From an uncultured delta proteobacterium (lineage in GTDB: Bacteria > Desulfobacterota > Desulfobacteria > Desulfobacterales > UBA2156), in the NCBI GenBank assembly GCA_963736855.1, contig CAVTQK010000015.1, positions 224,001 through 288,000 of the forward strand: 64,000 bases of DNA. The letters are read 5' to 3'. A program made the translations under genes and the position numbers. This document shows positions 3,961 to 17,660 of the stretch, piece after piece. A model generated the notes under the pieces. The model saw only the letters and a list, made by a program, of their open reading frames with translations. It did not search any database and had not been told where the DNA came from. How positions within the stretch are numbered: the stretch's first letter is position 1; each line of letters opens with the position of its first letter.

Positions 3961-4130
3961 CATCATATAGCCATTTCAATTCGTTATCAAATTCAAACAA
4001 ATAATGTTGAAAGAACAAATATACCCTTCGGATTTGTAACACAGATACTGTCCGGTTTATGAAGTCACCGAGGAGGTGAACGGGTGATGCAGACAACAGT
4101 ATCTATAGGAGACTCGGATGATAGTAATGA

Positions 4131-4163
4131 AAAAGGGTTACCGGAAAAACCGCGTAACCCTTT
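4131..4163 (-). terminator. Intrinsic terminator after tRNA pair
   Basis: AAAGGGTTAC...GTAACCCTTT hairpin. Confidence 0.7.
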
Positions 4164-4171
4164 GATTTGAT

Positions 4172-4248
4172 TGGTACGCCCGGCAAGATTCGAACTTGCG
4201 GCCTACGGATTCGAAGTCCGGCGCTCTGTCCAGCTGAGCTACGGGCGC
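4172..4248 (-). tRNA. tRNA-Arg(TCG)
   Basis: GCGCCCGTAGCTCAGCTGG...CT-TCG-AA...GTTCGAATC...ACCA cloverleaf. Confidence 0.95.
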
Positions 4249-4295
4249 ACGAAGAAGCCTCCCGATTCAGTTTTCGGGAGGCTTTTGAATCGGTG

Positions 4296-4372
4296 TGGGG
4301 TGAGTGGTGGGACTTGAACCCACGACAACCGGGGCCACAACCCGATGCTCTGCCAACTGAGCTACACCCACC
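4296..4372 (-). tRNA. tRNA-His(GTG)
   Basis: GGTGGGTGTAGCTCAG...TT-GTG-GC...GTTCAAGTC...CCCCA, includes G-1. Confidence 0.95.
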
Positions 4373-4449
4373 ATCAATTTATAGAATTATAGCCAAAGTC
4401 GGGTTCCTTTTCAAGAAAATTTATGGGGGTTTGACTTTTTACGATTTCA

Positions 4450-5010
4450 TTAACTTTTAGGTTGCGAATTTTTAAGACCGTATTGAAGGGTGGTCAGCCC
4501 GAGGTAGATATAATGGAGTCCGGAAATGATGGTCAGGGTGGCGGTGGTCCATATCAGGAACCAGCCGATGGTATATGCGTGAACGAATTGGGGCCTGAAC
4601 AGGCTGAAGAAGATGGTGGAAAGTTGAGAAACCGTGGTGAACTTGCTGACCAGAGTCGGTTTGATGTTGACGCTGACCCCGGTCATGAAAAAGACGGAGA
4701 CGCCGATGAGAATGATGACATCCCGGGTGATCACCAGAACAGCAAGCCAACTCGGGATGATGTGCATAATTGCCAGGCAAATGGTAGCGCTGGAAAGCAG
4801 CAGCTTGTCGGCAAGGGGGTCAAGATACGCGCCCAGGGCTGTTTTCTGGTTTGTATACCTGGCGATGAATCCGTCAAGACCATCGGTGATGGCGGCAAGG
4901 GTGAAGATTAACAAGGCGTAGCCTTCCATATCCTTGAGCAGCAGGATAACGAACAGAGGGGTCAACAGGATTCGGATAACGGTCAATATGTTGGGGATAC
5001 TGATCAGCAT
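4450..5010 (-). CDS. CDP-alcohol phosphatidyltransferase (PgsA/Cls-like)
   Basis: PNILT..R, DGLDGFIAR...GAYLDPLADK signature. Confidence 0.9.
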   Translation of the reverse strand: MLISIPNILTVIRILLTPLFVILLLKDMEGYALLIFTLAAITDGLDGFIARYTNQKTALGAYLDPLADKLLLSSATICLAIMHIIPSWLAVLVITRDVIILIGVSVFFMTGVSVNIKPTLVSKFTTVSQLSTIFFSLFRPQFVHAYTIGWFLIWTTATLTIISGLHYIYLGLTTLQYGLKNSQPKS

Positions 5011-13039: not shown

Positions 13040-14275
13040 TCACCCATCGGCTTTTCTGGAGGCCATCCCTGATGAAGGCATTTTTTTTGTTTGTGTTCCA
13101 GAATCGTAAAGGGATTTCAGCACCCCGTCGAAATAGTCGGGGAGGTAGCGATCCCAGAGCCGGATGGGAAGAGCGGTCAGTTCGGTTTTCTCGGATTCCG
13201 CAAAGGCAAACAGGTACTCCATGAGAAATTCGATGTTGCAGGCCAGCTGCCCCTTGTATTGTTGATCGAGGCGCTGACGCAGGATCCGTTCCTCATGCAT
13301 GGATTGTCCGATTTCGCTTTCCAGCATCTCCTGATAGTTGCACACAATGACTTCCAGCTCCACGCTTTCCTCGGCCTCTAGTACGAAGTCACGGAAAAGT
13401 CGTCGGACCTCATCGGGACCCATCCCCCATTTTTGCATGGAATCGAAAGTCTGTCGTTTCATGGGGTTCGAAAGGAGTTCTTCTTTATCCGGTTGATACC
13501 GAATAATCAAGTTGATGGCGTTGTATAATCCGCTGTGGTCCTCCCTTTCGAAAAGATCGCAGCAGTGCGTCTCCGAGATACGATCAAAGAAATGCTGACG
13601 GTGTGAATCTTCAACGATGACTTTTACGCCGGCGACGTCCCGGATGATCATCCCGTGGTTTTCTTCGATGGGGCGTCCGTTTTTCAGATCGTCAAGCAGG
13701 CGGCCTTCGGCTTTGAGGAACTCCTCGATCATTTTCGACTGCGGGGTAATCAGGAGTTCCACGGGGATACCCAAATGGAGAGCCCGGTCCCGGGCCAACG
13801 CATCGGCGCGTTTTCGGATGTCGATATACATCCGGTCGATGATACGGCGGGCGGCCTTTTCCGCCAGACGTCGGGAACGCTTGATACGGTTGGAACCAAT
13901 ATAGCGGAAGCCCCCGGAATGTTCGACAAAATAGAGTATGCTCTGGAACGGGGTCTCCCGGTAGTACACTCCTGGATCGATACGATATGCCGAGATCATC
14001 GCATCGATTCTCGGATTATGATAGGGGAGGTTTTCGACGATGACGTCTTTGAGATCGGCCTTGCTGGTCGCTTTCCGCATTTTAAGGGGGACGTCGTGGA
14101 GCAGACCAAAGATTTTTTCGGAGAAAGCCGGCAGGTAGCTCTGGATAAAAGCGCTGTTGAAGTGTATGAGTCGGTTGAGAATCTCGGCGTCGGAGGGGTT
14201 CGGAGTATTATACATCCATCGGGTGATAAGCTGTTTCAAGGCATCCCGATGCAAAATGCCGCTAATAGTAATCAT
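13040..14275 (-). CDS. Hypothetical protein, divergent RelA/SpoT synthetase-like
   Basis: RIK....AEK, DVAGVKVI, SGLYNAINL, ELEV...ESEIG.SMH. Confidence 0.55.
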   Translation of the reverse strand: MITISGILHRDALKQLITRWMYNTPNPSDAEILNRLIHFNSAFIQSYLPAFSEKIFGLLHDVPLKMRKATSKADLKDVIVENLPYHNPRIDAMISAYRIDPGVYYRETPFQSILYFVEHSGGFRYIGSNRIKRSRRLAEKAARRIIDRMYIDIRKRADALARDRALHLGIPVELLITPQSKMIEEFLKAEGRLLDDLKNGRPIEENHGMIIRDVAGVKVIVEDSHRQHFFDRISETHCCDLFEREDHSGLYNAINLIIRYQPDKEELLSNPMKRQTFDSMQKWGMGPDEVRRLFRDFVLEAEESVELEVIVCNYQEMLESEIGQSMHEERILRQRLDQQYKGQLACNIEFLMEYLFAFAESEKTELTALPIRLWDRYLPDYFDGVLKSLYDSGTQTKKMPSSGMASRKADG

Positions 14276-14320
14276 ATTACCGCAAGATATCCGAAAAGTG
14301 CTTATATGCCAAGATCAATT

Positions 14321-14480
14321 TTGATGAAATCGTAAAAACTCAAACCTAAATTGAGCGATTTTCGAATTTACCGCAGATGCAAGGCGCGGAAATCCTGAGG
14401 AATGAGGCGTACATATGGTTACGCCGCAATGACGAAGGATGCAGTGCAACGCAGCAGATGGACTTTTTAGGAGCGAGTCA
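14321..14480 (-). repeat. MITE-like palindromic repeat, copy 1
   Basis: Largely the reverse complement of 63520-63676. Confidence 0.8.
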
Positions 14481-14552: not shown

Positions 14553-15819
14553 TTAACGCTGAAGTGCCTTTTCAGGGGTGGTGATCAGAATCTCCAGATC
14601 TTCTCCTTGCATTTTTAAAGGTATCACCGCGATATTGTTTTGCTTATCCAAAAAACAGCTTCTTTTACCCTTGTCGGGTAAAAATGTGGCATGAGCAAAA
14701 CGGGGAGAGCCTGGATCAGCGTCCATGATCCGAACTGTACCGGTACCTTCCATAGCCTCCGGATCGACCCTGAGGATGAGAAGCCCAGCATCGGAAATCA
14801 AACGGTCAGAGCCAATGGGTTGACGGTTTTCCAAGAGGTAATAGATACCTCCTTGGAGAGGAATTTTCACCACCAAAGGATTGCCTCCCTTGGCTAACGG
14901 TACCAAGATCACTCGCTTTTCTTCGCCCGGTTTTACATGCACAACCTGATCATCGGTAATCCAACCCAACCGGATTCTGGTAAAGGAAGACAACCCGGGC
15001 GGGGGCGCATCCCTTTTAATCAGGTGTGAGGACATGACATCCCATGGACCCATGTAAGTAGTGCAATCTTCCCATTTCATTTTCGCTGAAGCGTCAGCCT
15101 GACGCTCGAAGTCATAAAGTCAGGGAACCAGGCGTTGGTTGTTGTACACCCCCCCCAGGGCATGAAAGAAGTCATGGGCAAACATACCTATGTGGGAATT
15201 TTCGGTGCCTACAAATATCCCCCCTGAAAATTCCTTGCCGCCCTTTGAGCGAAGGGTAAGATATTCCGGGTTTCTCCGCACACCCGTCAGCATACCGGGA
15301 TTGGCACAGTAGCAGGGCATGCCGTAACCCTTGTCAGAGACCGTTTGGACGCCGGGTACAATGAGCATGTGTTGATAAGCGGAGAAGTCCACCTCTTTTT
15401 CAAGACCGGTCATGGCGTCCCCGATGAGTTTTCTCACCCTATTGCGGTCCACCTTAAAATTGTCTTGAGCTGACCCGATACTCGGAGACAGGGTCGGGCA
15501 TCAAGACCCAGCCTGTCATATGGGCATCGATCCGAGCCTTGCCATACGATTGATCACGGACGTATTCGTTGAGCCGTGTTACTGCCTTGTACTTGATTTG
15601 ATCCAGGGAAAGATTCGGTTTTACGTCAGGAAACCGGACAGGAACCACGAGGAGGCGGATTTCTCCTTGTGCCTTCTGGGATTGAGGACCCAATAAGTCT
15701 GTAACTCGCGGTTGGCGATATTGGATTTCTGCACTTTCCTTCTGCTTCTGGATAGAACCGGTCCCTGTCTGGCAGGCGCATAAAAAAAACATCATAAAAA
15801 GCCATGTCCAATGTTTCAT
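14553..15819 (-). CDS. M6 (InhA-like) metalloprotease-domain lipoprotein; in-frame TGA at 15120-15122 (putative Sec); +1 frameshift at ~15465
   Basis: LCAC lipobox, LLVVPVRFPD, AHDFFHALG...VP*LYD, GPWDVMS, RLGWI, YYLLENRQ..G.D; three ORFs join into one. Confidence 0.7.
15090..15119 (-). promoter_or_regulatory. Putative bacterial SECIS element
   Basis: Perfect stem AGCGTCA-GGC-TGACGCT starting 13 nt after the in-frame TGA. Confidence 0.6.
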
Positions 15820-15869: not shown

Positions 15870-17660
15870 TTATTCTATTCGCTTGGGAATTTCCAACCTA
15901 AATATAGTTCCCCGGCCAGCTTGGCTGTCGACCTTGATGCTGCCGCCATGATCCTCGACAATCTTTCGCACGATAGCCAGACCCAAACCGGTTCCGCCGT
16001 GCCGGCCGTCGGATACGAACGACTCGAACAGACGGTGGCGGATCGCTTCAGGAATACCGGCACCGTCATCGCTAAAGAGGAAACACACATTTTTACCGGC
16101 ATCTTCCACTTCCACCCGGAAATGACCGCCATCAGGCATGGCCTGGCGGGCGTTGCGTGCCAGGTTGAACACCACTCGGCGCAGCTTGTTTTCATCCGCC
16201 CGCAACGGTCCCTGGTAGCGATCATGGATATCCAGCTTAATACGTGCCGGTGTCAGCTCTTTCTCCAGCAGTTCTCGTATCTCTTCGAGGAACTTGTTGG
16301 TGTAAATCTTGTACAGGAGTATCTGGCTTTCTCCCCGGGCAAAAGCCAGCAATTCATGGATCATGGTATCGATGAAATCAAACTGCCGCAGAATGATCTC
16401 GATTTTTTGTCGGCGGCTCTCGCTACCGGGTTCCATGGCCATCAATTGTACATAGCCGGAGATGATGGTCATAGGGGTGCGAATGTCATGGATGACTCCG
16501 GAGAGCATCTTTCCGATGGAGCTTAAGCGATTTTCTTTTTCACGCTCCTCCCGGCGAGTCCAGGTGATCAAAGCCGAGTGAGCCTGACCGGCGATGAGTG
16601 TGGCCAGTTTTTCGTCTTCGATGCCGAATTTCCCCTTGTGCTTGTTGAGCAATTCAAGTGCACCGATGTTCTCGCCTCCTGCTCCCAGGGGTACGGCCAA
16701 AATATTGCGCACCGGAAAATCCAGCTCTTTCTCCAACGAAACCAGGTGCCGCGGGTCGGAAGAAGGATCGTCCACCAGGGCGCTTTGGCCGTTTTCGGCA
16801 ACCCAGCCGGCAACTCCGCTTCCGCGCTTTAAGCGGATGCGCTTGATCTGATTCGCCTGGGAGCCGACCGCCTCGGGAAATAGCAACTCCTGGCCATTTT
16901 CGTCCAGCAGAACGATGCTTCCTGCTTCGCAGTCCAACAGTTCAACGGTTTGTCGCAACAGACGACCCAACATTTCATCGATGTCCAAAGATGTGGCAAT
17001 TTCGCGCTCCAGGGTAAAAAGCGCATCCAATTCCTGAATGCGGCGAGTCAGCTGCTCCTTCGCTGTTACCAATTCGATATTGCGGGACATCAGCCCCAGC
17101 ACCAGCCTCGTGTTCTCTATCGCCACCGCCACTTGAGAACAGATGGCTTCAAGCAGCTTCTCATCAGCCGCCGAGAAATAACCTTGGCGCTTGTTTAATG
17201 ACTGTACGACTCCCAGCACCTCCCCGCTTTTGCTACACAGCGGGACACTAAGAAGGCTCCTTGTGCGGTAGCCGCTTTGCTTGTCGATATCCGGATTGAA
17301 ACGATCGTCGGCATAGGCATCATTCAGGTTGAGAGTGCAGCCGTGTCGCGCCACCCAGCCGGCAACGCCTTGATTTAAAGGCAGCCGGAGTTCCTGCATG
17401 CCTTCACCTTGGGCCACCTTGGACCACAATTCACCCCGCTCTTTGTCCAACAGAAAAATGGAGGATCGTTCCGCCTCCATCAAGGCAGTGACGTTTTCAG
17501 CCACTAAACGCAGCAATTGGTCGAAGTCGCCCACGGCGGTGAGGCTGCGGCCTACTTCTATCATGGCCGCACAACGTCCTTCGGAGCGTTTCAGATCGGA
17601 ACGCAGGCGGAACATCTCTTGGCTGGCTTTGTCTCCGGAGATCTTTTCTTTATCCGCCAT
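15870..17660 (-). CDS. GAF-GAF sensor histidine kinase
   Basis: Two GAF domains (NKxxG.F...DE), HDIRTP H-box, NLARNA, GTGLGL. Confidence 0.9.
   Translation of the reverse strand: MADKEKISGDKASQEMFRLRSDLKRSEGRCAAMIEVGRSLTAVGDFDQLLRLVAENVTALMEAERSSIFLLDKERGELWSKVAQGEGMQELRLPLNQGVAGWVARHGCTLNLNDAYADDRFNPDIDKQSGYRTRSLLSVPLCSKSGEVLGVVQSLNKRQGYFSAADEKLLEAICSQVAVAIENTRLVLGLMSRNIELVTAKEQLTRRIQELDALFTLEREIATSLDIDEMLGRLLRQTVELLDCEAGSIVLLDENGQELLFPEAVGSQANQIKRIRLKRGSGVAGWVAENGQSALVDDPSSDPRHLVSLEKELDFPVRNILAVPLGAGGENIGALELLNKHKGKFGIEDEKLATLIAGQAHSALITWTRREEREKENRLSSIGKMLSGVIHDIRTPMTIISGYVQLMAMEPGSESRRQKIEIILRQFDFIDTMIHELLAFARGESQILLYKIYTNKFLEEIRELLEKELTPARIKLDIHDRYQGPLRADENKLRRVVFNLARNARQAMPDGGHFRVEVEDAGKNVCFLFSDDGAGIPEAIRHRLFESFVSDGRHGGTGLGLAIVRKIVEDHGGSIKVDSQAGRGTIFRLEIPKRIE

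Follow-up and report, generated by a model that had tools for sequence, protein, structure and literature searches.

Selenocysteine at a predicted metal-ligand position of an M6/InhA-like fold: a candidate selenoprotein family of uncultured Desulfobacterota-type anaerobes

The described proteins closest to the gene considered here are the M6/InhA peptidases of the metzincin fold (thuringilysins; structures 4YU5 and 4YU6, profile TIGR03296), which carry a catalytic Glu in an HExxH helix; a Glu-to-Asp change usually cripples zincins. For the thuringilysins, the available part of PMC12237041 describes an Asp as the third zinc ligand and a Tyr two residues on that can be a tyrosine switch. On the minus strand of the window (the whole stretch of DNA analysed, 64,000 nucleotides) lies a gene whose predicted product resembles these peptidases in its fold, HxxxH helix, PxLYD segment, Met-turn, export signal and C-terminal YY-LE-R beta domain, and departs from them in having HDxxH in place of HExxH, Sec or Cys in place of Asp as the predicted third ligand, and a loop insertion of ~8 residues together with CxC, GYGM and MSxH motifs specific to the new family. 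The proteins of this family are ~420-480 aa long with no large pro-domain evident, unlike M6/InhA. An earlier note, made from the letters of the window, had proposed that the gene encodes an M6-like lipoprotein with selenocysteine at the third metal-ligand position. The features of the gene are listed below, with residues numbered as in the homologous protein L001.

14553-15819, minus strand: whole gene span, as assembled two reading frames and not one
14553..15461, minus strand: main reading frame, 302 aa with TGA read as U, comprising the catalytic and C-terminal beta domains
15454..15819, minus strand: 5' part of the gene, with a lipoprotein-type signal peptide and the start of the M6-like domain
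15783-15772, minus strand: FFLCAC of the signal peptide
15463..15465, minus strand: one base too many, which shifts the frame, probably through an error in the assembly consensus
15306..15314, minus strand: CYC, that is C169-x-C171, on a predicted strand two before the active-site helix
15162..15176, minus strand: HDFFH, with two predicted metal His and an Asp where the catalytic Glu is expected
15120..15122, minus strand: in-frame TGA, predicted selenocysteine U233, at the third metal-ligand position by alignment
15090..15106, minus strand: hairpin of the bacterial SECIS type, its G(G/U)C loop 20 nt past the UGA
15030..15041, minus strand: Met-turn (DVMS), followed by the family-specific His265

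Once the TGA is read through, HDFFH, VP-TGA, LYDFERQADASAK and the downstream ORF form a single frame of 302 residues, with 13 in-frame codons leading from the TGA into ORF 14553-15080, and the 91% identical L001 is one ORF of 421 aa with a single TGA. Neither of the two gene pieces in the window has a Pfam match; the 5' piece matches positions 4-64 of TIGR03296 at 17.9 bits, and L001 scores 76 bits with the same profile, below its curated cut-off of 110.8. The earlier note had joined the frames across the TGA and did not mention that, as assembled, an extra base near 15464 breaks the frame of the span 14553-15819. The ORF encoding the signal peptide (15454-15819) ends early, at SSRQF-stop, because of this one-base frameshift near 15463-15465. 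The base is missing in L001 and six other close loci, and contigs from four of four public runs, about 97% identical and in one case of depth 3.4, have one base fewer at 15463 or 15465. Both in-frame versions are present in the letters of the window, which would fit a consensus merged from two strains. A second tuf copy of the same assembly (G000 C6:75000-76400) is also split, with two single-base indels relative to the first, a sign that the assembly suffers from indel errors. Since the extra base is lacking in all four close-strain runs, the frameshift is probably an assembly error and the gene copy probably intact in the cell, a strain-specific pseudogene being less likely. Programmed frameshifting at 15464 was rejected, as close relatives are in frame.

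An N-terminal hydrophobic signal is present in nearly all rows of the family alignment. The family is thus predicted to be exported, but a lipobox-like signal, as the proposed lipoprotein character would require, is found in only about half of the Sec rows (27 of 51, the other 24 being signal-like without a lipobox, by a crude rule). A GAF-GAF-HisKA sensor kinase lies 50 bp upstream on the same strand (window 15870-17660, minus), a linkage kept in L001 only, and a 411-aa ORF at window 13040-14275 (minus), with no Pfam or NCBIfam match, is likewise a neighbour common to L001 only. Directly downstream of the gene, at about 14310-14480 of the window, is a ~150 bp multi-copy intergenic repeat, REP- or MITE-like, with 71 blastn matches in the genome, 48 of them of at least 100 bp. 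Scans for promoters and terminators at the gene gave chance-level results only, and no RNA data set was listed as containing the sequence, which carries no information on its expression. When 1,392 ORFs from 140 loci were clustered by neighbourhood, the largest shared family spanned 9 loci of one close group, which argues against an operon, and no conserved neighbourhood among the 140 loci pointed to a substrate.

The loci compared were drawn from 46 and 5 loci and from the best 80 of 199 and the best 80 of 124 matches; among 204 loci, 198 fit the motif pattern and 6 did not, and a comparison over a 300-nt core left 140 distinct loci, some of them still close kin. The codon at the ligand column is TGA for 95 of these 140, a Cys codon for 19 and an Asp codon for 26; every one of them has HDxxH and none HExxH. 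Wherever the motif is present a stop at this column is TGA, never TAA or TAG, and coding continuity across it is seen in 92 of the 95 TGA loci, which are without a short, stop-closed upstream frame. Cys occupies the column in 118 of the 120 best full-length database relatives and U in none; the Sec forms are present in the databases as N- and C-terminal halves entered as separate proteins, with fragments that end in ...VP. Recoding of TGA as Trp was considered and rejected: the column in relatives is Cys or Asp, the tRNA-Trp anticodon is CCA, and neighbouring genes end in TGA.

The stem AGCGTCA-GGC-TGACGCT (15106-15090, minus strand), with its loop 20 nt 3' of the TGA, is the 7-bp stem and G-containing loop described in the earlier note, and it agrees with the bSECIS consensus given in the available part of PMC13188914 (section 5: a loop of 3-9 nt with G[G/U], a stem of 4-16 bp, 16-37 nt from the UGA). 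Its conservation, which the note had wished to see checked, follows the codon closely: the six inner pairs of the stem are all preserved in 95/95 TGA carriers, compared with 1/19 Cys and 0/26 Asp carriers. The loop in TGA carriers is GUC in 68 and GGC in 27, at a spacing of 20 nt, and one stem pair shows double-sided changes in 3 rows. A synonymous-codon test at ungapped offsets -120 to +59 in 84 TGA rows found three of 52 conserved degenerate columns to be codon-invariant (Arg+6, Gln+7 and Asp+9), all within the hairpin. Because the stem is broken in 6/7 Cys carriers that keep the RQSD peptide, the hairpin is not a by-product of that peptide. In a FastTree tree for which the residues of the ligand and the hairpin had been masked, supported branches provided six independent pairs, 5.7 of them concordant and 0 opposite (median p 0.031, range 0.031-0.063). 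As a measure of chance, 457 of the 137,749 TGA triplets of the genome (0.33%) have a perfect 7-bp stem with a G-loop 16-37 nt behind them. The centroid energy of the hairpin is -8.9 kcal/mol and the folding energy of a 60-nt stretch is unremarkable relative to shuffles (z -0.05), so that the evidence for the hairpin lies in its conservation and not in its stability. There are two Cys-side exceptions: L103, a Cys (TGT) form, still has a perfect SECIS, while L038 retains 5 of 6 pairs, and both are probably recent Sec-to-Cys changes.

The source genome encodes selA, selB, tRNA-Sec and a Sec-type, TGA-containing selD, so that selA, selB, selC and selD are all represented. A selA gene was found in 37/41 MAGs with the TGA form and in 8/9 with the Cys form, and Cys forms therefore arise in Sec-capable genomes. 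Two of the four TGA-carrier MAGs without selA have tRNA-Sec at 76-77 bits, and the other two of the 41 have neither selA nor a strong tRNA-Sec, these MAGs being incomplete. The earlier note would have been abandoned on homologs lacking TGA and Cys at this column, an unconserved hairpin or absent Sec machinery, none of which was found. A conserved UGA, Cys homologs, a bSECIS element and Sec machinery, the computational marks of a bacterial selenoprotein, are present together, and the TGA at 15122-15120 is almost certainly decoded as Sec.

Residues 41-421 of L001 were modelled with AlphaFold from a 94-row alignment; the model has a pLDDT of 96.3 and supports the proposed M6-like fold: its best match is InhA2 (4YU5), with Z 26.0 and an rmsd of 2.7 A over 332 residues, the next match having Z 9.8, and Foldseek against InhA2 gave E 7e-13 and TM 0.67. 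A PDB search with the single sequence found no match, and a family profile search was required. In the profile alignment, HxxxH-x-LGG-[insertion]-P-U-LYD lies opposite HAFGHDLG-LPDEYD of 4YU5, with an insertion of about 8 residues in the helix-to-ligand loop, and the Sec column falls on the D of GLPDEYD, the third zinc ligand of InhA2, in agreement with the third-ligand position that the earlier note had assigned to the TGA. Conservation of H215, D216, H219 and Y235 is 100% in each of three groups, Sec (52), Cys (28) and Asp (31). The three groups also conserve R229, Q240, H265, N120 and GYGM, which 61 HExxH relatives do not; for H265 conservation is 100/89/100% (U/C/D groups), compared with Gly at 39% in the HExxH relatives. 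M262 of the Met-turn is also conserved. The replacement of Glu by Asp in the helix had been noted correctly, but is older and wider than the Sec, being common to relatives with Asp or Cys as ligand.

The TGA carriers among GTDB matches are all MAGs, labelled Desulfobacterota, Deltaproteobacteria, syntroph or 'Pseudomonadota', and the gene is patchy, with a match in 5/61 related genomes. In a tree rooted with HExxH proteins as outgroup, every Sec row falls within one clade (FastTree support 0.81) with several Cys lineages nested inside it, an Asp-ligand clade is its sister, other Cys lineages lie outside, and there are 10 changes between Sec and non-Sec. This topology suggests the order HE/Asp, then HD/Asp, then HD/Cys or Sec. 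Several MAGs have two paralogs (L004/L014, L007/L023, L012/L013 and L034/L114), and in L154 a second, distant family member of the GLCGYPG...HDIAH type (4101-4895, minus) adjoins the gene on the opposite strand. Six full-length relatives (P0002, P0023, P0031, P0043, P0045 and P0051) lack the acidic residue or at least one of the two metal His (e.g. YEFVC...QQHYD), and may be regarded as candidate pseudo-enzymes of the same family.

We propose that this uncatalogued family, with an M6/InhA (metzincin) fold and found in uncultured Desulfobacterota-type anaerobes, uses His215, His219 and the Sec selenolate to bind one divalent metal, which would be Zn2+ by fold and might be Fe2+ in anaerobes. The interchange of Asp, Cys and Sec in one column fits a metal ligand and not a redox thiol, and the Sec is probably a ligand. 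As forms with Asp or Cys occur in nature with the remainder of the site retained, selenium would tune or secure the metal and would not undergo redox cycling; it is speculation that, where sulfide is abundant, the metal may be held more firmly by a selenolate. The protein would probably still be an enzyme, most likely a hydrolase of narrow specificity for an amide- or peptide-type bond acting outside the cytoplasm, in which Asp216, Tyr235 and the new His265 take over the acid-base work of the canonical Glu. The invariance of D216, Y235 and H265 argues for catalysis rather than mere binding. The loss of the catalytic Glu, the loop insertion and a conserved Cys pair near the cleft count against the reading; hydrolase-type catalysis is about as likely as not. 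For the reading as a whole, in which an exported metal hydrolase has a His2-Sec site, altered acid-base residues and a narrow choice of substrate, we estimate a probability of about 0.5.

The Cys pair supports the leading alternative, a thiol, sulfur or soft-metal enzyme on the same fold, in which Sec233, Cys169 and Cys171 would form either a selenenylsulfide relay or, with Asp216, a second or bridged metal site, with periplasmic sulfur compounds or heavy metals as targets. The CYC that the earlier note had pointed out upstream is indeed present (15314-15306); C169 is conserved in 100% and C171 in 96% of Sec rows, compared with Ala at 61% and Cys at 52%, respectively, in Asp rows, and CxC occurs in 90/95 TGA loci, 5/26 Asp loci and 116/120 best full-length database relatives. 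In the model CYCAN makes up the second strand ahead of the active-site helix, at what would be a cleft-lining upper-rim position. Its register presumably matches the G-Y-A-x-x-P-G of pappalysins, and by that match C169 and C171 would probably both face the helix near D216. Such a pair fits redox or extra-metal roles, the general base has been lost, and known selenoproteins are mostly redox enzymes according to the available part of PMC13188914 (section 7). However, CxC is enriched with Sec without being tied to it: it predates Sec, since the sister clade with Asp has it, and the single independent pair gave no support for a link between Cys169 and a thiol or selenol ligand. Moreover, 26 natural Asp forms, in which the ligand is incapable of thiol redox, keep HDxxH, H265, R229, Q240 and GYGM. 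We therefore regard a thiol or soft-metal enzyme as rather unlikely.

Less likely still is a non-catalytic pseudo-peptidase, an exported binder of peptides or other ligands whose His2-Sec metal would be a structural or binding anchor. The catalytic Glu is absent throughout the family, the metal His are lost altogether in P0002, P0023, P0031, P0045 and P0051, and substituted zincin sites are common and in general of unclear role, as stated in the part of PMC3650047 available; but Asp216 is the same in every row of the U, C and D groups, which also retain Tyr235, the Met-turn and His265, and the cost of Sec together with a frozen SECIS would suggest chemistry. That the TGA is a true stop, through a split gene or an inherited nonsense mutation, or that the window copy is a dead pseudogene, is very improbable and for the family largely refuted, because the second lesion of the window copy is the base absent from all four runs in an assembly with like indels in tuf, and because the separate database halves and the short upstream frame of 3/95 TGA rows are outweighed by a stop that would cut the metal site, is always TGA, aligns with Cys in nearly all of the best relatives and is tracked by the SECIS on the tree.

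The family would bring to the selenoprotein catalogue consulted a structural class absent from it, a metalloprotease fold with a Sec column that is Asp in ancestral enzymes. The earlier note knew of no such described family, and the sources bear this out within their available parts: no M6 or peptidase family appears among the 119 families of the 2026 catalogue (PMC13188914 Table 1, in which the comparison with 'hypothetical' rows was not by sequence in every case, and through which the families of Haft and Tolstoy 2025 were covered), nor any zincin or peptidase homolog among its 119 rows. Peptidase, protease and M6 terms are absent from the accessible text and supplements of deep-Sep, as are the family motifs from its supplements, and the same terms are absent from the searched passages of the BSepDB text, SelCysML, Haft and Gwadz, and Kivenson et al. 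(supplement in part, perhaps without Tables S6/S7). None of 94 family members matched the seleno models of NCBIfam 20.0, and literature searches gave no relevant paper and, among the 20 entries listed in one of them, no HDxxH, with the proviso that the groundwater-MAG candidates of Deng et al. 2026 could include the family. The best 120 full-length relatives are named 'M6 family metalloprotease-like' or 'hypothetical' (JGI/NCBI), none of these names mentioning selenium, and the Asp form P0003 matches only hypothetical, M6 and M11-like clusters in the ESM Atlas. That all GTDB carriers found are MAGs and that Sec forms are stored as two fragments would explain why the family was overlooked. A new selenoprotein family is well supported, and it is unusual in that its Sec falls in a column which, in a protease fold, belongs to an Asp-type metal ligand.

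Sec is a metal ligand in formate dehydrogenase (Mo/W) and [NiFeSe] hydrogenase and is predicted to be one in SaoB/SaoX and HgcA (PMC13188914 section 7 and the Haft and Gwadz preprint, each in part). These systems resemble the new family in its predicted Sec ligand, but are redox enzymes or transporters of unrelated folds. In the DMSO-reductase family, too, a single ligand position can be Sec, Cys, Ser or Asp. Peptide deformylase and LuxS have His2-Cys metal sites, often with Fe2+, and perform hydrolytic or lyase chemistry on small substrates; to our knowledge neither has Sec forms. They can be taken as functional analogues of the proposed site, with a thiolate or selenolate beside two His, although their fold differs, they are cytoplasmic and they keep a Glu base, and neither is among the listed fold-search rows. 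We lean towards the view that this is the first natural zincin-fold protein with Sec ligating the active-site metal, a His2-Sec Zn/Fe enzyme perhaps repurposed from proteolysis, and, if so, the Glu-to-Asp change and the two cleft Cys may mean a new extracytoplasmic chemistry of sulfidic habitats. The analysis also brings to notice a large HDxxH clade of M6-like proteins, whose Cys- and Asp-ligand members are 40-63% identical to the Sec forms and have the same conserved site without TGA or SECIS. Together these forms provide, on a single scaffold, a series from nature whose ligand atom is O, S or Se (Asp, Cys, Sec), in which the benefit of selenium at a metal site can be tested outside redox enzymes.
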